A stretch of DNA of 64,000 nt from an uncultured Acidobacteriota bacterium (GTDB lineage Bacteria > Acidobacteriota > Blastocatellia > RBC074): positions 302,003-366,002 of the forward strand of contig CAVUPU010000001.1 of the NCBI GenBank assembly GCA_963743425.1, read 5' to 3'. The position numbers and the translations under genes were made by a program. Positions 39,548 through 49,974 of this stretch are shown here, piece by piece. Position 1 is the first letter of the stretch. The number at the start of each line of letters is the position of its first letter. Under the pieces are notes generated by a model. That model had not been told where the DNA came from, made no database searches, and worked only from the letters and a program-made list of their open reading frames with translations.

Positions 39548-40186
39548 GTGACCACAGATGGGACGAACAACGTCGCGCCGAATTCTCTTTCGGATTATGA
39601 ATTGGCGCAGGCGTCCGCGCGCGGAGATATGCAGGCGTTCGAGACGGTTTACGAACGTCATTATCGGCGCGTTTACAGCTTATGTTTGCGGATGGTGGCC
39701 AACGCCACTGAAGCTGAAGACCTGACGCAGGAAGTCTTCATCCAGCTCTTTCGCAAGATCGGCAGTTTTCGAGGCGAATCCGCTTTCACCACGTGGTTGC
39801 ATCGCCTCACGGTCAACCACGTCCTGATGCACTTCCGCAAACGCGGAGTTCGGCTCGAGAAGACGACCGAAGAGGGTGAGATCGGCGAGATCCAGGATTT
39901 CCTCCAAGCCGGCGCAGAGCGTCCGCGCTTTATCGACCGCATCGCGCTGGACAAAGCTATCTCGGAGTTGCCCCCCGGATACCGGACGGTCTTCATCCTC
40001 CACGATGTCGAAGGATTTGAACATGAAGAGGTCGCCGACATGCTGGGAGTCAGCGTCGGCACATCGAAATCTCAGTTGCACAAGGCACGAATGCGGCTGA
40101 GAGAGTTGTTGACCAAAAAAACAGATACGAAGAAAGATACGAAGAAAGATACGAAGAAAGGGACGAAGAAAGGGACGAAAAAATGA
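39548..40186 (+). CDS. ECF-subfamily sigma-70 factor with a Lys-rich repetitive C-terminal tail
   Basis: Region 2 is [36 protein letters not shown] and region 4 is [27 protein letters not shown]. The tail is [27 protein letters not shown] start is assumed. Confidence 0.8.
40124..40183 (+). repeat. 5 x 12-bp tandem repeat encoding (D/G)TKK at the sigma-factor 3' end
   Basis: gatacgaagaaa x3, then gggacgaagaaa and gggacgaaaaaa, immediately before the stop codon. Confidence 0.85.
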
Positions 40187-40895: not shown

Positions 40896-41641
40896 AAGAG
40901 ATTCCGAACCGCCTTCCATCTTCAAAGTCGGTCGCGCAATCGCTATCAGCGCTGGCAATAGGCTTCGCGGTTTTAACCGCATCAGCCTCTTCGTCCAGCG
41001 CTCAAACTTTCAGCCGGGCCTTCGCCGTGTCGCCCGAAAGGAGCGAACTCGAAGTCGTGAACCAGGCCGGGACGATCAAGGTGACCGCCGGCGCCAACCC
41101 CGCCAGGATCGTGATCAACGCCAGGCAGAGCGACGGCGAGGCGAAGATCGACGTCACGCAAAACTCAGTGGGAAAGATCAAGGTTGAAGTGACAGGACGC
41201 GGAAGGGTCGATTTCGAAATCGCCGTCCCGGCTTCGAGCAGCATCGATCTGCTCTCTTTTCGAGGCGCGATCGTGGTCACGAACCTGGCCGGCGCGGTTC
41301 GCGCCCGCGTCACCGACGGCGACATTCAGATCACCGGATTGCGCAGCGCGAAAGTCGAAGCCCATTGCAGCCAGGGCAATGTCAGTTTCAGCGGAGAGGT
41401 TTTGCCCAGCGGCAGCTATACCCTGAAATCTTTTTCGGGCCGTGTTGACGCCACTTTACCGGCCGACGCCGATTTCAAACTCTCGGCGTCCTCGTTTAGC
41501 GGAGGGATGTACCTCGACGCGTTCCAGATGAAGTTCGATAAACGGTCTCAAAAGTTGGTGGAAGCGTCGCACGGCGCGGGCCGCGCTTCAATAAGTTTAT
41601 GGACTCAGGAAGGAAGCATTCATCTTCACCGCAAACCCTGA
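40889..41641 (+). CDS. DUF4097-like beta-strand-repeat protein (putative adhesin fold)
   Basis: The start ATG overlaps the anti-sigma stop. There is a signal peptide, and GxIxV-type strands recur ([47 protein letters not shown]). Confidence 0.6.
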
Positions 41642-42789
41642 TCGCGGATTGCGGGTTGCGGATTGCGGATTGCGGATTGCGGATTGTCGCTTCCCGCAAC
41701 CGGATTGTTCTTTTGACTGTTCTCTGTTTCGCTCATTACGTCTTCACTTCGAGTTTACAATTCCACAATCCGCACGGCGCACATTACAACTCGCCGCTCA
41801 CAATTCCAAAAAACCGCAAACCGCAAACTGCAAACCGCAAACCGCAATCCGCAATCCAGGACCCGCCGAAGCGCGAAATAATTCTCTCGGAGATCATCAA
41901 GCTGAACACCGATCTGGTCGTGATCGATGCGCAGGCGCTCGACCGGAAGACCGGACAGATCATCAATGGGTTGAAGGCCGCCGATTTTGAATTGTACGAA
42001 GACGGCGTCAGACAGGAGATCGCGCATTTCAGCCAGGACGGCTTTGCGCTTTCGGTGATTCTGCTGATGGATTTGAGCGGCAGCGTCAGCCCCGTTCTCA
42101 AAGAGATTCAATCGGGCGCCCTGCTGGCGTTGGAGAGATTGAAAGAGAACGACGAGGTGGCGGTGATAGCCTTCTCCTCCGACACGCAACTGGTTCAGGA
42201 CTTCACCCTCGACCGGAAGCTGATCGTCGAACGGGTCGGCCATATCGAAAAGACGCCCGTCATAGGGCAGGGAACATCGCTCTTCCAAGGGTTGCGCGAC
42301 GCCGCCATTCACATGAACAAAGCCAGCAATCCATTGAGCCGCCGGGCGATCATCGCCGTCACCGACAACGTCGCCTGGGAATACCATTTCTCCGGCCTCT
42401 CGGAGAAGGAGGTCGCCGATAAGATTTTCGAATCGGGCAGCATGGTCTGCGGCCTTGTGGTCGAAGGCGCGATGACCAGGACCGAAAAGATCTTCAATTG
42501 GCATCGCCCCGTCGCCGACATCTACCGCCGCAGAATGATGGTCGACCCCTTCGCCGCCCAAACCGGAGGCGAGGTGATCAAATCGGATAAGACCGAAGTC
42601 AACGCGCGGCTGGCTCTGCTGATCGATCATTTGAGGACCCGCTACAGCCTCGGCTTCATCTCGAAGAAGGAGCAGGCCGATGGAAGCTTCCGCCGGATCA
42701 GCCTGGCTTTGACGTCCGAAGCCCGGAAGCGCCTGGGCGATGTCGTGATCAGAACCAAACAGGGCTATTACGCGCGCCCGCAGAAATAG
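41599..42789 (+). CDS. VWA-domain protein (TIGR03436-like); start codon uncertain
   Basis: [41 protein letters not shown] followed by [11 protein letters not shown] (a MIDAS-like DxSxS). The 5' region overlaps two heptamer repeat arrays, so the true start may lie between 41599 and about 41713. Confidence 0.7.
41644..41685 (+). repeat. 6 x 7-bp tandem repeat GCGGATT
   Basis: gcggatt gcgggtt gcggatt gcggatt gcggatt gcggatt. Confidence 0.9.
41812..41857 (+). repeat. About 6.5 x 7-bp tandem repeat AACCGCA/ATCCGCA (near-complement of the 41644 array)
   Basis: aaccgca aaccgca aactgca aaccgca aaccgca atccgca atcc. Confidence 0.9.
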
Positions 42790-42890
42790 AGCCCAGCCAC
42801 GCCAGAGTACTCCCTAACCGCACACCGTGCTATATTTGGAATAGCGCTTGCCAGAGATCAAGCGCCGACCAAACTGAAAGGGGACGCGCG

Positions 42891-43151
42891 ATGGACACAC
42901 CGACACTTGATGAAGTTCTCGAACTGGCAAGGCGATTACCGATCGCTGATCAGCAAAGGCTAGTAAGATTGTTGAGCCCGCCGAAGACGATCGAGCAACT
43001 CGCGGAAGAGCAGGGAATTAAGCCGCTGGACTGGGATGCCGCGCGGAAGCGCGCCTCCGGCATCTGGCCCGAGGATGAGAGCATTGATGATTTTCTCGCG
43101 TTCCTGCGAGAGTCACGGAAGGACAGCGCGCCGGAAAGCAGGGTGGGGTAA
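42891..43151 (+). CDS. Putative type II antitoxin (86 aa) paired with a vapC remnant
   Basis: Small acidic protein (MDTPTLDEVLELARRLPIADQQRLVRLL...). The next ATG follows its stop directly and opens a PIN-toxin N-terminus. Confidence 0.55.
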   Translation: MDTPTLDEVLELARRLPIADQQRLVRLLSPPKTIEQLAEEQGIKPLDWDAARKRASGIWPEDESIDDFLAFLRESRKDSAPESRVG

Positions 43152-43319
43152 ATGCGCGTCGTAATCGTCGACACTGACGTCGCATCGTTTCTCTTCAAGG
43201 GGGATACGCGCGGCGATCTCTATACACCGCATCTCGAGGGCGATACGTTGCCGGTAAGATACGAAGTGGTCAGCCGACTTAGAGTGTTTCTTGCTAACTC
43301 GAACTGCCAAAAGTCGTAA
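43152..43319 (+). pseudogene. vapC: VapC (PIN-domain toxin) truncated after about 33 aa by the low-GC insertion
   Basis: MRVVIVDTDVASFLFKGDTRGDLYTPHLEGDTL is a typical PIN N-terminus with the first acidic residue. From about 43250 the reading becomes unrelated and runs into the 3' end of the convergent TIR gene. Confidence 0.65.
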
Positions 43320-44613
43320 CCAAGAGCACAGAATTCGGCAATCTCGTTTGGATTTTTAGACAGGCTAAGATAGCCGCATAATCAATACATTCCTTTACTA
43401 CCCACGTCTCAATTCCAGTGGCCTCTGCAATGTCTTTAAAGTCTATCCACTCATTTTTCCATATCTCTCTAGCCTTTAACCACTCAGAGATTTTAGTGCC
43501 AGCTTCTACTGCTTGCTCTTGCGATAGTTCATTCTGTTGTGCTGATTCGACAACAATTTGTGTACTGCACACAAGTGTTCCAGGTCTTTCGACTTGTTCG
43601 GCACGAGCTTTTAGAGACCGAAGCAACATTCCATATGCATCAGGATTGTCGTAATATCTTAAATAGTGTAGATGGCTAAGCCTCTCAGGTATTTCGCACT
43701 CTTCCAGTAGTATGGGAATAATGAAGATATGGCCTTCCGGCTGTCTGTCTGCCTCATCCAGCACAAGCTTAATCTCTTTATGAACATAACCCCTATTATT
43801 CATAGCGTCTTTTGATAGGCAGACAATAATCGCATCGCTATTGCGTACTGCCTTTTTTATCTCAAGCTCCCAGTTTTGGCCGGGCAGTATATTCTTTTCA
43901 TCAAGCCACGCCTCTATACCATCTGCCGATAAACGATTATAGAGTTCTCTGACTGCCGGCTTGTTTTTGGAAGAATGACATAGAAACACTTTCAGCTTTT
44001 GCACTGGGGCAACGTAATCACTATGAAAACTGCCGGATTGCTGGTCAAGCTGGTTTGCTTGCTCGTCATTCGCCTGAGTCCCCATCCATTCCTCTACCTT
44101 TTCTATACCATTGATGGTAATAGACACCCTATAACCAACAGTCTTTGCCTTAATAAGGTCTTCGTCACTTAAATAATAGAGGAAATCAGAGATGTCGTCT
44201 TCTGATATTCCCTCTTCTGTTGCAATATGTTTAAAGTTGACTGTCTCCTGACTACTACCACCGGTTTTCTCAAATAATTTCTTCAGTAGCGTAAAACGCA
44301 GTTCTCGCCTCTTCTGAATAATAAGAAGTAAATCGAGAGGGGCTTGAGACTTCAAAATACTATCCTCAATCTCTAAAATACCGAGATAGCTTAGGCGTAC
44401 CAATTTATCAACCCTCTTTCTGAAGAAGCCTTTGTCTTGATAATAGGCATAAATATCACTCGCTTCATCTTCTTTGATCCCTAAGCCCTGGGCTATGTCC
44501 CATAAAGGTATCTGTCTTGCTCTCCCCCCATTAGCCGCTCTGTATACTTCCACTATCAGAAGAGTTCGGTTCTTTCGCCTCTCAGCAATATTGACTTCAG
44601 TAGGCTTGTTCAT
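43294..44613 (-). CDS. TIR-domain protein flanked by wHTH-like modules (439 aa), low GC
   Basis: The central block is KVFLCHSSKNKPAVRELYNRLSADGIEAWLDEKNILPGQNWELEIKKAVRNSDAIIVCLSKDAM...GYVHKEIKLVLD. Two N-terminal modules of about 90 aa (and possibly one C-terminal) look like winged helices. Confidence 0.7.
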   Translation of the reverse strand: MNKPTEVNIAERRKNRTLLIVEVYRAANGGRARQIPLWDIAQGLGIKEDEASDIYAYYQDKGFFRKRVDKLVRLSYLGILEIEDSILKSQAPLDLLLIIQKRRELRFTLLKKLFEKTGGSSQETVNFKHIATEEGISEDDISDFLYYLSDEDLIKAKTVGYRVSITINGIEKVEEWMGTQANDEQANQLDQQSGSFHSDYVAPVQKLKVFLCHSSKNKPAVRELYNRLSADGIEAWLDEKNILPGQNWELEIKKAVRNSDAIIVCLSKDAMNNRGYVHKEIKLVLDEADRQPEGHIFIIPILLEECEIPERLSHLHYLRYYDNPDAYGMLLRSLKARAEQVERPGTLVCSTQIVVESAQQNELSQEQAVEAGTKISEWLKAREIWKNEWIDFKDIAEATGIETWVVKECIDYAAILACLKIQTRLPNSVLLVTTFGSSS

Positions 44614-44920
44614 AAGTTTTGCTATTCCCTCTATTCATTTTCAAATAATTTAAAACTCGAATCAGAGTGCGGCAGACGGTATATTTAGGCGATCATTCCA
44701 GCGCCTTGAAGCTGATCACTGGATGCATCTCTATCCCGCTTGGCAAAGACTTGCTCTATTTCCAAAGGAAATCGTTGAGCGAAGCGAATAAGATGTACGC
44801 TTGAGCAATCCTAAAGTCAATATCCGCTTCAATCCTTCTATTCGCTCGTGTTTAAATTATTTAGTTTCTGGCTCTGTGGGCAGGTTGAGATCGCTTCGAT
44901 TCCAGCGAGTCTAATGATTC

Positions 44921-44950
44921 TTGCTGCCGAGATTTCTCCACGAGTATAAT
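44921..44950 (+). promoter_or_regulatory. Sigma-70-like promoter for the second TIR gene
   Basis: TTGCTG, an 18-nt spacer, then TATAAT, about 55 nt upstream of the ATG at 45004. That ATG has a GGTGGGAG RBS. Confidence 0.4.
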
Positions 44951-45003
44951 CCCGCCTGCCTTAGAGTTTTGCCCCAATATTTTCGGTCATATAGAGGTGG
45001 GAG

Positions 45004-45879
45004 ATGAAGATATTCCTTAGCTGGTCTGGCAATAGAAGCAAAGCTGTTGCATTGGCTCTCAGAAGTTGGATTCCCGACATCATACAAACCGTTCAACCCT
45101 GGATGTCGCAAGTGGATATTGACGCTGGTTCGCGGTGGAGTAGAGAAATGAACACCCAAATGGAAGAGACCAGGTTTGGGGTTCTTTGCCTCACAAAAGA
45201 AAATCAGACTGCGCCGTGGATACTCTTTGAGGCAGGCGCACTTGCTAAGACGATCTCAGACACTTTTGTGTGCCCTTACCTCATTGATCTTGAACCAGCC
45301 GAGATACGTCAAGGCCCTCTCACTCAGTTTCAATCAAAGAGGGCAAATGAAAAAGAAACCTGGGAGCTAATACAAGCTATCAATAAAGCCCTAAAAGAAG
45401 GCGCGCTACCAGAAGATAAACTCAAACGCGCTTTCGACAGATGGTTTCCAGACCTCAAAGAGAAGCTCGATGGCCTCCCCAAAGAGCAGCCAGAGAAAAA
45501 GCAAGATAGACCTATGGAAGAAATGGTCGAAGAAATATTAGGTCTGGCGCGTGGGATCACTCGGCGCGGGTCAGACTCCAGACATATCGAGCACCTTAAT
45601 GATAATCTGGAACGGCTTATAGAGTCAGTGAGAAACCTACCGTATGCTGCAGGCAAGATTGAAATGAATGCAGAAACAAAGCACAAATTTACAGTAGCAG
45701 TTGAGCGACTCATCAGACAAGAAGTACTTGCAGTCCTTAGACAGGCGGAAAGAGCGAGTGAAGAACACATCGCCAATCCTGACGCTGGCGCAACTCCATT
45801 AACAGATTACCTGATAGAAGCGGTACAGGAACGTATAAAGCGGGGGGAGATACACGCCAAGCTGGCGCCGGAATTTTAG
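45004..45879 (+). CDS. TIR-like domain protein with a helical/coiled-coil C-terminal half (291 aa), low GC
   Basis: MKIFLSWSGNRSKAVALALRSWIPDIIQTVQPWMSQVDIDAGSRWSREMNTQMEETRFGVLCLTKENQTAPWILFEAGALAK is a bacterial TIR-like pattern. It is divergent from the other TIR gene. Confidence 0.65.
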   Translation: MKIFLSWSGNRSKAVALALRSWIPDIIQTVQPWMSQVDIDAGSRWSREMNTQMEETRFGVLCLTKENQTAPWILFEAGALAKTISDTFVCPYLIDLEPAEIRQGPLTQFQSKRANEKETWELIQAINKALKEGALPEDKLKRAFDRWFPDLKEKLDGLPKEQPEKKQDRPMEEMVEEILGLARGITRRGSDSRHIEHLNDNLERLIESVRNLPYAAGKIEMNAETKHKFTVAVERLIRQEVLAVLRQAERASEEHIANPDAGATPLTDYLIEAVQERIKRGEIHAKLAPEF

Positions 45880-46503
45880 TCAGTCCTAGCCTGTCTACTT
45901 GCCACCCTTAAATCAGCAGGAATATTGTTTTTCTGTGCGGTCTGTATAAATTGTCTTAGGCTTGTTATTAGCCTGCATCTATCCAGCACTGACTGCTAGC
46001 AAGACTGATCCGGCTGTGGCTCTCAGGCACGGATAGGGTTTTGGCTTTTTATCTGAATCCGCGAAAGAATACTCCATCCATAGCGACAGCTTGGATGGAG
46101 ATGAATTTCGCCGCCCTGGAAGGGCTTAACTGTGCTATGCTTCGCGCAGTTCTTTGAAACTCGAATTTGGCGGTTCCGGCAGGAAGTCTGCCGGGTAAAA
46201 GTTTGAACGCTAAAGAAAAGAGTTGCAGTCGGCAAAGCGATAACCAAGCACGCCGGCAATTGCAAACAAATGTAACGGCGACGGCGCCGTGAAAAAACCG
46301 AGATTCGCTTGAATCTCCTACCCGGTCGGGCGCCGGGGAAGTAACGCCTGTGGATATATGCATCCGACACGGGTGCAGCCCAGGAATCTCCACCCATAGC
46401 CGCAAGGCTTGGGTGGAGAGGATGTCAATTGATCCTCTGGCATTGCCATGACTGGCCAAGCCGCCTTCCCGCGAAGTGGTCCCCCGACCTTTGACACTCT
46501 TGA

Positions 46504-47145
46504 TTAAACTGCCCGCGCGATCAGGGAACTGAGCGGACGAGGCGTGGCGCCGCGCAACCGCCTGGCCCAGGAAGTTTGAAGTTGCGGCCATTCGGACGGC
46601 GGCAGCGATCCGTATTCGACTACGTCAAAGCCGGTCGCCCGGTAGCGCGGGATCAAATCCGTCTCCAGGAATTCGAGCGAGAGCGGGCTTAACCTGAGTC
46701 TTTCGATCTCCGCGAGGTCGCGTTCCGGATCGAGAGCGATAACGACCTCCAGCCAGGCGCCTGGCGCGCAGACGCGTCGCAGATTGCGCAACACCACTTC
46801 ATCACCGAGCGCCAATGCGCGCAACAGGCTGCCCCACGGAAAATGCGCGTGGATCTCGTCGGCCACGCCGTCAAGCTCCGGAGGCAGGTCTTCGACCGCC
46901 GCCTGGATGAAGAGAACATTAGGCGCCCCGCCCTTCGCCGGGTTGCGATGAATCTTCTCGGCGACCTTCTCCAGAGCGCTCGACTGCGCGTCTATTCCGA
47001 TGTAGAACCGATCCGGATGTCGCCGGGCGGACTGGTAAACAAAGCTCCCGTCGCCCGTCCCCAGGTCTATGATCACGCCTCCGCCGGTAGGGGGCGATGA
47101 GGTCATGGAATGTTCATCAATCGAGAGTGTAGAATCTTTTGCCAC
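46504..47145 (-). CDS. Class I SAM-dependent methyltransferase, NpmA/KamB-like (16S rRNA m1A1408 family homologue)
   Basis: VIIDLGTGDG...FYIGIDAQ...KIHRNPAKGGAPNVLFIQAAVEDLPPELDGVADEIHAHFPWGSLL...TSWARRLR aligns block by block with my recollection of NpmA (HIDLGTGDG, FYIGID, KKPSKGGLSNVVF, AAAESLPFEL, FPWGTLL, SLWAKRL). Confidence 0.65.
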   Translation of the reverse strand: MAKDSTLSIDEHSMTSSPPTGGGVIIDLGTGDGSFVYQSARRHPDRFYIGIDAQSSALEKVAEKIHRNPAKGGAPNVLFIQAAVEDLPPELDGVADEIHAHFPWGSLLRALALGDEVVLRNLRRVCAPGAWLEVVIALDPERDLAEIERLRLSPLSLEFLETDLIPRYRATGFDVVEYGSLPPSEWPQLQTSWARRLRGATPRPLSSLIARAV

Positions 47146-47313: not shown

Positions 47314-49974
47314 ATGAACCAGATGATTGCGCTTTCACTTATTGTTATTCAACTTGGAGCGATGATGATGGCAAATGCTGAAGTCAAAAATCAGGAATTG
47401 TGGGGCGAAGGCGTCTCGCGCGAACTGGCGCGCCATCGCGCCGCGAACATCTCCGACCTTCGTTATCGGCTGAGCTTTGATCTCATCCCTGGCGCGACCA
47501 GGATCAAAGGTCGCGAAGAGATCAGTCTGAATCTGAAGAACGCCGCCGATCCGGTGATCCTGGATTTCCGCGACCTCGACGATCAGGGGCGCATCGTCGA
47601 AGGCGCGGTCAGCAACGTGACGGTCAACGGCTCAGCGGTGAACGATCTTCGTCAAACGGGCGGCCACATCATCTTGCCAGCGCGCTATTTCAAAAGCGGC
47701 GAGAACACGATCGCCATGGATTTCGAGACAGGCGTCGCCCCGGCCAATCGTCCGATCATCCGGTACCTGGACCGTGATGACGGCGCCGAATACATCTACA
47801 CGCTGTTCGTGCCGATGGACGCGAGCCTGGCGTTCCCATGCTTCGATCAGCCCGATTTGAAGGCGCGATTCACGCTCACAACCGCCGTCCCAACGTCCTG
47901 GACCGTTGTCACAAACACGCGGCGCCAGATAATCACTCGCAACGGTACGAACTCATTGTGGGGCTTCCGTGAGACACATCCGATCAGCACGTACCTGTTT
48001 GCGTTTGCCGCGGGGCCATTCAAAGAGATTGAAGGCGAGGGTGGTTCGGTTCCGCTGCGGGTGTTCGTCCGCCAATCGAAGCTGCAGCGCGCGAAGGAGG
48101 AGTGGCCTGAAGTCGAACGGCTGACGCGCCAGGGGGTGGAACACATGGTCAAATACTTCGATCAACCGTTTCCATTCACAAAATACGATCAGGTATTGAT
48201 CCCCGGTTTCGCTTACGGCGGGATGGAGCACGCGGGCGCGACCTTCCTGCGCGAAGATTCGATCCTCTTCCGAACCGTCCCGACTAAGAGCGATAAGTTG
48301 AATCGCGCTTCGCTTGTGTTGCACGAGTTGGCGCATCAATGGTTCGGCGATCTGGTCACGATGCGGTGGTTCGACGACCTGTGGCTCAAAGAGGGCTTCG
48401 CCAACTTCATGGCCTCTCACGCGATGGCCGCGATGGAACAGTACCGCGACCTTGAGGGCGCGGCTATCTGGAAACGGTTTTATCAAACGCACAAGCCGCC
48501 GGCCTACGCCATTGACTCGACCAAAGGGACGACGCCGATCTACCAGGAAGTGCGCAATCTCAAAGACGCGAAGTCGGCCTACGGCGCGATCGTTTATCAA
48601 AAAGCGCCGAGCCTGCTGCGCGCGCTCACGTTCGTCATCGGCGAAGAGAATTTCCGCGACGGCGTGCGGTTGTTTTTGAAAGAGCATGCCTATGCGAACG
48701 CCGAATGGAGCGACCTGATCGGGGCGTTCGAGCGAGTATCGGAACAGAAGCTTCAATCGTGGGCCGACGCCTGGGTCAAACGGCGCGGGATGCCGCAGGT
48801 CGATATCGAATGGATATGCGACGCGCGGGGGTTGATCGACAGTTTTGAAATCAGGCAGCGCGACATTCTGGACGAGGGCGGCGTATGGCCGATCAAGACG
48901 CGGCTGTTGCTGGCTTACGACGACGCCGAAGCCCAACGGATCACAACTTCATTCGACGGCGAACGATCGACGATCCGCGACGCCGTCGGCAAGAAATGTC
49001 CGGCCTACGTCTTCGCGAATGACGGCGACTTCGGCTACGGCAGGTTCATGCTCGACGCGAAGAGCCGTGCGGCTGTGATGTCGAGGATCGGCGGAATCGG
49101 CGATCCGTTTCTCCGCGCGATGCTGTGGGGCGCGCTGTGGGACGCCGTGCGCGAGGCTGAAATGAATCCGCGCGATTACATATCGCTGGTTTTGAAGACG
49201 CTGCCGGCAGAGGCCGATCCGGAGCTTTCACAGAGCCTGCTCGACCGCGCGACGCGGGCGTTCGAGCGATACCTCTCAACATCAGAGCAAAGCGCAATCG
49301 CGCCGCAGATCGAGTCGCTCTTTTTCGATCGAATGATGAAGGCGGGCGAGGCCGATTTGCGGATCACCTATTTCAGGGCTTTCCGTTCGGCGGCGACGAC
49401 CGCGGAGGCGCGCAGTCAATTGAAAGACTTGCTGTCGGGCAAAACGTCCGCGCCCGGCGTCGAAATAAAACCGCAGGATCGCTGGCGCATCGTCGCCGCG
49501 CTGCTTGCGCGGCAGGACGCGGAAGCCGAAAGCCTGCTCGACGCCGAACGTAAACGCGACACAAGCGACGACGGGCGCAAACAGGCCTACATCGCTGAAG
49601 CGGCGCGCCGCGAAGCTGCCACGAAACGGCGATATTTCAACGACTATCTGAATAACCGCGCCACGCCAGAAGACTGGGTCGAAGGAAGTCTGGCCGCATT
49701 CAATTCGCCGAACCAATCGTCGTTGACTTTGCTCTACCTTAAGCCTGCTCTGGAGTCGCTTCCGCAAGTGAAGCGCGAGCGGAAGATTTTCTTTACGCTC
49801 GCCTGGCTCAACGCCTTCATCGGCGGCCAGCAGAGCCGACAGGCGCTCGATCAGGTACGCGAGTTTTTACGCGCCAACCGGCTCGACCGCGATCTCGAAT
49901 TGAAGGTCCTGGAAGTGATGGATGAGCTGGAACGGACGGTGAAGATTCGCGCGAAGTTCGCCGGTAATCAGTAA
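47314..49974 (+). CDS. pepN: M1-family zinc aminopeptidase (aminopeptidase N-like)
   Basis: GGMEHAG exopeptidase motif and HELAHQWFGDLVTMRWFDDLWLKEGFA (HExxH-x18-E). 886 aa with a signal-like N-terminus and an ERAP1-like helical C-terminal domain. Confidence 0.85.
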   Translation: MNQMIALSLIVIQLGAMMMANAEVKNQELWGEGVSRELARHRAANISDLRYRLSFDLIPGATRIKGREEISLNLKNAADPVILDFRDLDDQGRIVEGAVSNVTVNGSAVNDLRQTGGHIILPARYFKSGENTIAMDFETGVAPANRPIIRYLDRDDGAEYIYTLFVPMDASLAFPCFDQPDLKARFTLTTAVPTSWTVVTNTRRQIITRNGTNSLWGFRETHPISTYLFAFAAGPFKEIEGEGGSVPLRVFVRQSKLQRAKEEWPEVERLTRQGVEHMVKYFDQPFPFTKYDQVLIPGFAYGGMEHAGATFLREDSILFRTVPTKSDKLNRASLVLHELAHQWFGDLVTMRWFDDLWLKEGFANFMASHAMAAMEQYRDLEGAAIWKRFYQTHKPPAYAIDSTKGTTPIYQEVRNLKDAKSAYGAIVYQKAPSLLRALTFVIGEENFRDGVRLFLKEHAYANAEWSDLIGAFERVSEQKLQSWADAWVKRRGMPQVDIEWICDARGLIDSFEIRQRDILDEGGVWPIKTRLLLAYDDAEAQRITTSFDGERSTIRDAVGKKCPAYVFANDGDFGYGRFMLDAKSRAAVMSRIGGIGDPFLRAMLWGALWDAVREAEMNPRDYISLVLKTLPAEADPELSQSLLDRATRAFERYLSTSEQSAIAPQIESLFFDRMMKAGEADLRITYFRAFRSAATTAEARSQLKDLLSGKTSAPGVEIKPQDRWRIVAALLARQDAEAESLLDAERKRDTSDDGRKQAYIAEAARREAATKRRYFNDYLNNRATPEDWVEGSLAAFNSPNQSSLTLLYLKPALESLPQVKRERKIFFTLAWLNAFIGGQQSRQALDQVREFLRANRLDRDLELKVLEVMDELERTVKIRAKFAGNQ

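Follow-up and report, generated by a model that had tools for sequence, protein, structure and literature searches.

Two divergent TIR-domain genes, probably independent defence-type cassettes, in place of most of a vapC toxin gene at a variable site of a Blastocatellia chromosome

The window analysed here is a 64-kb stretch (64,000 nt) of an uncultured Acidobacteriota bacterium of the lineage Blastocatellia; RBC074 (assembly GCA_963743425.1, contig CAVUPU010000001.1, positions 302,003 to 366,002), and all window coordinates below count from its first nucleotide. Between a gene for a VWA-domain protein and a gene for an NpmA-like 16S rRNA methyltransferase homologue, the window holds a vapB-like gene, the beginning of a vapC toxin gene with a PIN domain, and low-GC DNA with two divergent genes for TIR-domain proteins of 439 and 291 amino acids (aa), here called TIR-A and TIR-B (Table 1). 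Both open reading frames (ORFs) are intact, both match the Pfam family TIR_2, and a TIR fold was modelled for both, in agreement with a preliminary description made from the sequence alone. We consider it somewhat more probable than not that these are two independent, stand-alone TIR NADase-type defence genes lying in a replaced vapC, their function being inferred. On the sequence comparisons below, and with the same measure of confidence as the whole of this explanation, the foreign DNA would consist of two independently mobile single-gene cassettes placed head to head, which became neighbours by chance of insertion.

The DNA that carries the TIR genes is foreign by its base composition. GC content is 0.443 at 43290-46020 as against 0.562 for the whole window, dropping from ~0.58 to 0.41-0.47 across 43250 to ~46250, and third-position GC is 0.40 in TIR-A and 0.45 in TIR-B, compared with 0.66-0.74 in the vapB, VWA, and methyltransferase genes. 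Three contigs from related genomes (L011-L013) align to the window at 85-90% DNA identity until ~42790-42800 and resume at 46501-46508, with no alignment in between. Since they align on both flanks and not between them, we read 42.8-46.5 kb (42801-46500, vapB included) as a variable site between the VWA and methyltransferase genes of a Blastocatellia chromosome. The site is empty in L013, in which the two genes are just ~120 bp apart, whereas it is occupied by a 736-aa double-VWA gene in L011 and by a 451-aa transporter-like ORF in L012; vapBC is absent from it in all three. The methyltransferase protein is kept at 86-92% identity in four Blastocatellia metagenome-assembled genomes, and its gene is therefore chromosomal and outside the island. 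No recombinase ORF was found in 42.8-46.5 kb (ORF list, Pfam), as previously noted. Scans of the 64-kb window for tRNA and tmRNA and a permissive scan of 43100-46600 were empty, there were no Rfam matches in the window, and integrase-type island hallmarks (recombinase, tRNA, att repeats) were not seen at the borders, attC-type sites lying outside these searches. An imperfect 17-nt direct repeat (15/17 matching) occurs at both edges of the variable segment, at 43262-43278 (CGAAGTGGTCAGCCGAC) and 46472-46488 (CGAAGTGGTCCCCCGAC), and its left copy straddles the end of the TIR-A cassette. It is probably due to chance, with ~0.7 such pairs expected by estimate, yet its position is suggestive. A 14-nt inverted repeat (43357/45884) was rejected as a border signal, being at chance level and having one arm within a coding region.

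The vapB-like gene and the PIN-toxin start that follows it are arranged as in intact relatives. The vapB-like protein has 81 relatives of equal length, the nearest 89% identical, and no match in Pfam, PADLOC, or NCBIfam; since it lacks a Pfam match of its own, its antitoxin role rests on its conserved position. In four contigs (L006-L008 and L010, the last not syntenic with the window), a vapB homologue is followed directly by a 135-aa Pfam PIN gene, and in the window, as in these intact relatives, the two genes abut, stop and start reading TAAATG. Contig L009 is the most informative relative. It shares 91% DNA identity with window positions 41823-43254 in the same arrangement of VWA gene, vapB homologue, and vapC start, the latter cut by the end of the contig. 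The homology ends at 43254, after vapC codon 34 (a loss of similarity after about 33 codons had been described), and the break accordingly lies at 43254/43255: past it, L009 continues as vapC (...GDTMPAISFMTL), and the window instead reads ...GDTLPVRYEVVS. The remnant ORF runs on for 21 further codons in foreign DNA to a stop at 43319, and no PIN domain was matched in its 55 aa by Pfam. When an intact 135-aa VapC (L006:4760-5167) was compared with the whole window by tblastn, it aligned only to remnant residues 1-35 (77% identity), the best other match (E=0.019) lying 39 kb off; neither this search of the 64-kb window nor six-frame translation of 45880-46520 recovered the 3' part of vapC.

The gene is thus reduced to 34 of its 135 codons, with ~300 bp (the last 100 codons) lost. 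Insertion into vapC had been proposed, and that proposal stands insofar as the gene is broken, leaving an intact but orphaned vapB. However, since the remainder of vapC is nowhere in the window, the sequence argues for a replacement, or an insertion plus a deletion, rather than a simple insertion; an intact continuation of vapC nearby, named beforehand as a sign of artefact, is likewise missing from the window. L009 carries vapBC at the same site, and the pair was therefore present there in a close relative before the TIR DNA came. The variable site of this lineage would first have held a vapBC pair, and foreign low-GC DNA would later have taken the place of all of vapC beyond codon 34. Elsewhere, a 78%-identical vapB with an intact vapC occurs in L006 (2672-5167), and also in L007 and L008, amid many small ORFs and beside a Rad52-family recombinase gene. 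This phage-like context suggests that this type of vapBC is itself carried by mobile elements.

The two-cassette reading, and the limits given to each cassette, follow from the fact that homology to close relatives stops at the ends of each gene. On the TIR-A side, L001/L002 match 43576-43999 (TIR domain, 87%) and 43269-43578 (C-terminal module, 79%), the two matches being 1015 nt apart in L001, where they fall in two adjacent genes. L180 matches 44117-44600 (N-terminal units) and 43269-43566 (C-terminal module), and a further 32 nt of it (825-856) match 44893-44924 in the intergenic region. The homology of both L001 and L180 to the window stops exactly at 43269, and since their match to each other runs on for 37 nt, 43269 is the window's own junction. 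On the TIR-B side, L099 (84% protein, 87% DNA identity) matches 44942-45889 only, from the point at which its contig starts to 10 nt past the stop codon, and the match of L098 (75% protein, 81% DNA identity) is confined to 44977-45879, with unrelated sequence in the 315 nt before it and the 119 nt after it. The seam between the cassettes is at about 44925-44941, and their GC contents are 0.423 (TIR-A) and 0.475 (TIR-B). Relatives with vapBC had been suggested as a means of defining the borders: L009 sets the left break, and the right border of the foreign DNA is somewhere within 45890-46300. The 614-bp spacer from 45890 to 46503 has no relative among ~180 fetched loci and no Rfam match, and its GC climbs from 0.485 (45890-46299) to 0.588 (46300-46503). 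It holds a hairpin at 46061-46111 and, at 46300-46317, a minus-strand terminator-like hairpin downstream of the methyltransferase gene.

TIR-A is a rare mosaic of two tandem winged helix-turn-helix (wHTH) units, a TIR domain, and a C-terminal wHTH, the pieces of which recur in other combinations. Pfam TIR_2 matches residues 209-325 (E=5.9e-27), and the AlphaFold2 model (mean pLDDT 80.3) has a TIR fold that Foldseek likens to solved TIR domains with a probability of 1.00; residues 208-342 superpose on the TIR domain of Hydra TRR-2 (TM 0.84), and SPARTA, MyD88, and AbTir also match. The wHTH-like modules that had been described on both sides of the TIR domain are borne out by the topology of the model, which predicts helix-helix-helix-hairpin units, as expected of wHTH, at residues 93-165 and 365-433. 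The second N-terminal unit consists of helices 93-117, 127-133, and 138-150 and strands 154-157 and 162-165, the first unit being modelled with lower confidence. The C-terminal module consists of helices 365-381, 392-399, and 403-416 and strands 388-391, 419-422, and 428-433. This module has a weak Pfam match to wHTH-PRTase_assc (E=0.011) and forms the C-terminus of a separate gene in both L001 and L180.

Each part of TIR-A has its own relatives. Over residues 1-175, it shares 59% identity with the C-terminal half of P0125, a protein without TIR, and the TIR domain is 84% identical to P0123 at the protein level and 50-61% identical to TIRs fused with FGE-sulfatase, receiver, WD40, LRR, CHAT, NB-ARC, and GTPase domains. 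Among 5.8 billion clustered proteins, the sole relative with the full architecture is P0122 (62% identity, 80% coverage), whose gene is followed by a Mrr-type restriction gene and a SieB-family gene; no close relative was found in IMG/VR. An exhaustive search with residues 1-194 returned 5 representatives below E=1e-10, and ~100 weaker matches fall on the 80-aa unit that is present twice in TIR-A. The 108 proteins that share this unit have weak matches to MarR_2, HTH_Crp_2, NirdL-like HTH, TrmB, and Rrf2. TIR_2 is found in 8 of them, and others carry CAP12-type TIR, DUF4062, CHAT, KAP NTPase, EAD7, TCAD2, or SLFN-AlbA_2 domains. The shuffling extends to whole genes, L001 encoding TIR-coil and X-CwHTH as two genes (X being a ~200-aa N-terminal region and CwHTH the C-terminal wHTH) and L180 encoding X-wHTH-wHTH and X-CwHTH. 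L001 862-1752 and L180 1053-3552 are multi-gene cassettes of TIR-A-type modules in varied orders with a ~200-aa helical domain, and they carry glycine/glutamine-rich linkers such as NVGRD.NGP.Q.

TIR-B had been described as a protein with an N-terminal TIR-like domain and a coiled-coil tail, in a possible module whose architecture could not be matched to named systems. The TIR domain is present (Pfam TIR_2 at residues 3-105, E=1.2e-07, 32.6 bits as against a cut-off of 28) and the tail was modelled as long helices, but the protein does match a named system: residues 1-247 match the PADLOC model PDLC03016, 'TIR-TM' (E=2.1e-69, 232.6 bits), which is the TIR component of the three-gene system of phage AC1, the two membrane partners of which are missing here. 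TIR-B also matches phrog_13899 (E=5.9e-69). In its AlphaFold2 model (mean pLDDT 81.6, >90 over most of residues 1-160), residues 1-110 form the TIR fold and residues 116-156 a helical extension of good confidence, followed by tail helices at 171-210, 223-257, and 266-279 with pLDDT 56-75. Foldseek matches with a probability of 1.00 include SPARTA TIR-APAZ, the plant RUN1 TIR, BtpA, and SpbK (the SpbK TIR filament at rank 47), and the plant Roq1 TIR matches as well. A sequence-profile search of solved structures (PDB) with the TIR-B family gave no TIR match, and the comparison holds at the level of the fold only.

The TIR-B family comprises 1574 clusters at E<=0.001. Its 190-aa N-terminal module is 55-68% identical across many relatives, and F4, S6, W7, S8, W72, F75, E76, G78, A79, K82, and R183 are invariant in 62 family sequences. 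The tail, in contrast, is found in no relatives but the three closest; elsewhere in the family, residue 190 is followed by HNH, REase/DUF559, sigma70_r4, TPR, or unrelated sequence. A hidden membrane tail on TIR-B, in the form of 39 hydrophobic codons past the stop, was considered and rejected, as the stop position is common to the three closest relatives and the homology of L099 ends 10 nt on. In P0006, P0015, and P0046, an HNH or DUF559/REase nuclease domain takes the place of the tail after the 190-aa TIR module, and in these proteins it may be the nuclease, and not the TIR, that kills. Family members occur on at least 109 IMG/VR contigs. Two genes downstream of the TIR-B-family gene recur in at least 10 viral loci, 4 of which also have two upstream membrane-protein ORFs in common; the annotation of phage mEp390 gives late-gene regulator Q and putative holins at these positions. 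Six genes are annotated on a 4.7-kb Serratia plasmid, namely the family gene, a NadS-family gene, and genes for replication and mobilisation. Members of the family are thus for the most part lone accessory genes of mobile elements, i.e., temperate phages, plasmids, and variable islands.

Judged by sequence and model, both proteins look functional, each combining a TIR fold, a catalytic Glu, and signs of purifying selection, and both are full length relative to their relatives. A check of the catalytic Glu had been proposed, and it is retained in both. E76 of TIR-B aligns with the Glu of the WCLDE motif of the plant TIR 3jrn and is invariant, together with W72 and SWSG, in 62 sequences, and for E280 of TIR-A the aligned residue is the Glu of 7uwg, a solved bacterial TIR chain, with conservation of at least 90% among 52 sequences; the codons of E76 and E280 were verified by translation. 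We take the aligned Glu residues of 3jrn and 7uwg to be the catalytic residues of those reference proteins. By the Nei-Gojobori method, dN/dS is 0.10 for the TIR domain of TIR-A compared with L001, 0.19 for residues 1-190 of TIR-B, and 0.34-0.46 for the TIR-B tail (residues 191-291), values that indicate purifying selection on both proteins (dN/dS 0.10 to 0.30), weaker on the TIR-B tail.

These features are consistent with a mechanism in which each TIR protein would act alone as a phage-triggered NAD+ hydrolase of the abortive-infection type. The non-TIR part, i.e., the helical tail in TIR-B and the wHTH modules in TIR-A, would recognise a phage component or nucleic acid, binding would cluster the TIR domains into an active head-to-tail assembly, and NAD+ would then be consumed, or an NAD-derived nucleotide made, so that the infected cell no longer supports the phage. 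Since the TIR-B tail is exchangeable and less constrained, it is a natural candidate for the recognition part, and the wHTH units of TIR-A are candidates because they are reused with other effector domains. The precedent is SpbK, a single TIR protein with a small sensor domain that docks on the phage portal, upon which clustering and head-to-tail assembly lead to cleavage of NAD+ (PMC12847820). A more ambitious reading, which we regard as possible though doubtful, would make TIR-A an undescribed single-chain immune class whose portable tandem wHTH unit senses phage nucleic acid or protein and switches on the fused effector, with the TIR-B family working without membrane partners and using its exchangeable tail as the phage sensor; in its strongest version, TIR-A and TIR-B may also co-assemble.

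The preliminary description regarded the pair as a two-TIR defence module, and a single two-gene system could work through an NAD-derived signal and its sensor, or through a mixed TIR assembly, from a shared divergent promoter region. The two genes are indeed adjacent and divergent, have a 390-bp intergenic region in common, lie within one low-GC segment, and occur together on a contig of an independent short-read assembly, probably of the same organism. However, the pair does not recur. Co-occurrence was examined in 160 loci of the TIR-B family (80 metagenome and 80 IMG/VR loci; 39 of the 80 metagenome loci had at least 1.5 kb upstream), and tblastn detected no clear relative of TIR-A beside them, the matches being only to the family member's own TIR; the lone separate match, in L174, is weak (E=0.009). 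All-against-all clustering of 260 neighbouring ORFs gave no recurrent family besides near-identical contigs. According to Pfam and PADLOC, the 111 immediate neighbours include integrases, HepT and BrnT toxins, AbiTii, a type II restriction enzyme, and PADLOC candidate families, and the one TIR domain among them is of a differing kind (CAP12-type). Moreover, L098 and the window part 27 nt before the TIR-B gene begins; in L180, the one informative relative of the TIR-A cassette, the divergent gene is HNH-like; the GC contents of the two cassettes differ; and neither protein has a SLOG, Macro, SAVED, CARF, or STING nucleotide-sensor domain. We therefore consider a two-gene system very unlikely, and favour two stand-alone genes. 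Several observations weigh against that preference. The nearest relatives of TIR-B (71-84% identity; the four closest contigs) are on contigs too short for an upstream neighbour, only L098 among them being informative on that side, for 342 nt; most contigs of close relatives are thus cut at the critical side, where absence of the pair is not proven, and the 160 co-occurrence loci are just 32-57% identical to TIR-B. In addition, the tested AC1 member was cloned with two membrane-protein genes, and a solo TIR-B may have no effector or use one encoded elsewhere; on this precedent, family members may make a signal for an effector, none of which is encoded near TIR-B. The HNH- and REase-tailed members suggest that the TIR module could serve for scaffolding or sensing and leave the killing to another part.

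The same AC1 system raises the alternative that TIR-B is what remains of a decayed 2TM-1TM-TIR system of this type and, lacking its membrane effectors, no longer works in defence. Its match to the AC1 TIR model is strong, AC1 was tested as three genes only, with signalling from the TIR protein to the membrane proteins proposed by its authors (PMC9122126), and the neighbouring vapC shows that deletions occurred at the site. Nevertheless, AC1-type membrane partners were found in just 2 of the 160 family loci, from which it follows that the solo state is the rule. TIR-B is also full length with end-points common to its three closest relatives, its conserved module is under purifying selection, and solo copies occupy phage accessory-gene positions and the 4.7-kb plasmid, so we hold degradation to be quite unlikely. 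A role outside defence is to be weighed as well, either with TIR-A as a DNA-binding regulator that self-associates by its TIR domain or with either gene as an addiction or toxin-like element that stabilises mobile DNA. TIR domains that are pure interaction scaffolds are established for animal TLR and MyD88, and Foldseek returned the scaffold-type MyD88 as one of its matches; three modules of TIR-A are of the HTH type, and the cassettes adjoin a toxin-antitoxin remnant. We judge such a role unlikely, given that the catalytic Glu is kept and highly conserved in both proteins, that the wHTH unit of TIR-A is elsewhere fused to CAP12-type TIR, DUF4062, CHAT, and KAP NTPase, that P0122 has a Mrr-type restriction gene and a SieB-family gene as neighbours, and that a TIR-B family member with two membrane-protein partners gave phage protection (PMC9122126). 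Lastly, the abrupt change of GC at the break and the lack of a target-site duplication and a recombinase might be explained by an assembly artefact, i.e., a chimeric contig joined inside vapC. However, the contigs of three related genomes that are syntenic with one flank are also syntenic with the other, so that a chimera would require a second mis-join that compensates for the first at a distance of only 3.2 kb. The length of the source contig is 1.14 Mb, the independent assembly contains the same TIR pair, and an artefact is accordingly extremely improbable.

Table 1. Features of the locus and its surroundings in window coordinates (strand "." where none applies)
Feature	Position	Strand	Basis or remark
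VWA-domain protein gene	41599-42789	+	ORF list
vapB-like gene, 86 aa	42891-43151	+	ORF list
Truncated PIN ORF, 55 aa, starting MRVVIVDTDVASFLFKGDTRGDLY	43152-43319	+	ORF list
vapC (PIN toxin) remnant, 34 codons	43152-43254	+	L009 homology, tblastn
Left junction, 14 nt outside both vapC and TIR-A cassette	43255-43268	.	L009 end 43254; L001/L180 end 43269
TIR-A cassette: CDS 43294-44613, 25 nt downstream, ~310 nt upstream	43269-44924	-	L001/L002, L180 homology ends
TIR-A gene, 439 aa	43294-44613	-	ORF list
TIR-A C-terminal wHTH-like module, residues 362-439	43297-43530	-	Model, L001/L180
TIR-A TIR domain, residues 206-346; E280 codon 43774-43776	43576-43998	-	Pfam, Foldseek
TIR-A residues 1-175, two tandem ~80-aa wHTH-like units	44089-44613	-	Relatives, AlphaFold2 model
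Divergent intergenic region	44614-45003	.	Holds seam between cassettes
TIR-B cassette: CDS 45004-45879, ribosome-binding region, 10 nt downstream	44942-45889	+	L099, L098 homology ends
TIR-B gene, 291 aa	45004-45879	+	ORF list
TIR-B conserved module, residues 1-190, TIR fold and helical extension; E76 codon 45229-45231	45004-45573	+	PADLOC, model
TIR-B variable helical tail, residues 191-291	45574-45876	+	Model, relatives
Stretch without credible ORF, after TIR-B	45880-46503	.	ORF list
Non-coding spacer holding right border of foreign DNA	45890-46503	.	No coding signal; codon-position GC flat in its ORFs
NpmA-like 16S rRNA methyltransferase homologue gene	46504-47145	-	Pfam PF24675
886-aa ORF	47314-49974	+	ORF list

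Several observations concern the surroundings of the locus. The protein encoded by the methyltransferase gene matches Pfam PF24675 (E=5.8e-59, 199 bits as against a cut-off of 60) and is of the NpmA/KamB type of 16S rRNA (adenine1408-N1) methyltransferase, a family known for aminoglycoside resistance. The 5' part of the VWA ORF contains two 7-nt tandem arrays, at 41640-41686 (GATTGCG x6.7) and 41811-41854 (AAACCGC x6.3), which encode the repeated peptides IADCGLR... and RKPQTAN... and are also present in contig L009; the gene may in fact begin downstream of these arrays. At 40123-40183, a 12-nt tandem array (AGATACGAAGAA x5.1) forms the 3' end of ORF 39548-40186, read as ECF-sigma-like, and gives it a tail of KKDT/KKGT repeats.

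The locus itself is a small and fairly ordinary case of defence-type genes in a variable chromosomal site, in this instance with a toxin gene destroyed. More may be gained from two leads, namely that TIR-B family members occur solo and that the wHTH unit of TIR-A is portable. The family is large (>1,500 clusters, at least 109 viral contigs) and is nearly always without membrane partners, and the tandem wHTH unit, joined as it is to several death or effector domains, is a candidate shared infection sensor. Both leads bear on the detection of phages by bacterial TIR proteins, which is known for very few such proteins.

Among named systems, 2TM-1TM-TIR (AC1) is the one to which TIR-B is related. 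Cloned together, its three genes gave E. coli C protection from lambda, LF82_P8, and P2, and its TIR protein was suggested to signal to the membrane proteins (Rousset et al., 2022; PMC9122126). A retron origin of the PADLOC name 'TIR-TM' was considered and discarded: the name is not from the retron classification (PMC7736814), and the matter was settled by scanning the AC1 proteins. In that scan of P2-like phage AC1 hotspot genes, PDLC03016 proved to be the TIR protein (E=2.7e-118), with PDLC02978 ('2TM-TIR') and PDLC02977 ('1TM-TIR') as its partners. TIR-B is 38% identical to the AC1 TIR protein over 183 aa (E=1e-40) and has the SWSG motif, W72, E76, and the helical extension in common with it, and family members are typically on temperate phages, as is the AC1 gene. 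The C-terminal tails, however, are unrelated, and TIR-B has an acidobacterial host and a variable chromosomal site. Searches of the whole window by tblastn with the AC1 partners gave nothing better than E=2 (2TM-TIR) and E=1.7 (1TM-TIR), and no ORF of the variable segment has a predicted membrane helix. With both membrane partners missing, this is not a complete 2TM-1TM-TIR system, and since such partners accompany so few of the 160 family loci, the named system may itself be an atypical representative of the family.

For Thoeris, the likeness lies in a TIR protein as a defence component. TIR-A matches several ThsB models weakly (E 2.5e-06 to 3e-03) and in the TIR domain only, TIR-B matches none, the Pfam ThsB_TIR match (E=0.02) is below cut-off, and NCBIfam ThcB4 scores 16 bits as against a cut-off of 220; these are probably generic cross-matches between TIR domains, well short of the family cut-offs. 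As the preliminary description had observed, no ThsA-like gene (SIR2, Macro, SLOG) is present in the variable segment, and no ThsA-type effector (SIR2, SLOG, Macro, TM) was found in or beside it; the locus is therefore not Thoeris. Matches to retron XII (RT-TIR_XII and NF042941) cover the TIR part only (profile 318-459) at 49.5 bits as against a cut-off of 600, and there is no reverse transcriptase ORF. No APAZ or pAgo match to suggest SPARTA was obtained in Pfam or PADLOC, the structural likeness being confined to the TIR domain. The locus is thus neither a retron-TIR nor a SPARTA system. Compared with VapBC, the 86-aa gene in the antitoxin position abuts the PIN gene as in intact relatives, but with 34 of 135 toxin codons left it is no longer part of a toxin-antitoxin pair.

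The working model for both genes is SpbK of the Bacillus subtilis element ICEBs1, in which one polypeptide unites a TIR NADase with a small helical domain that binds a phage protein (PMC12847820, PMC11984713) and whose gene also resides on a mobile element. No relation in sequence was detectable, however; the TIR domain of TIR-B is N-terminal, i.e., the order is reversed, and TIR-A has wHTH modules where SpbK has a 4-helix bundle. TIR-A further resembles the TIR fusions of conflict systems of multicellular bacteria (Kaur, Burroughs, Iyer and Aravind, 2020; PMC7159879) in the shuffled modules of its relatives, those of its TIR and of its wHTH unit being joined to CHAT, NB-ARC, EAD7, TCAD2, KAP NTPase, and other domains, although TIR-A has no NTPase or other regulator in or beside the protein. 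In sum, TIR-A combines known kinds of parts in an arrangement that is rare, and TIR-B adds a member to a named family, in the solo form that is common there but uncharacterised.

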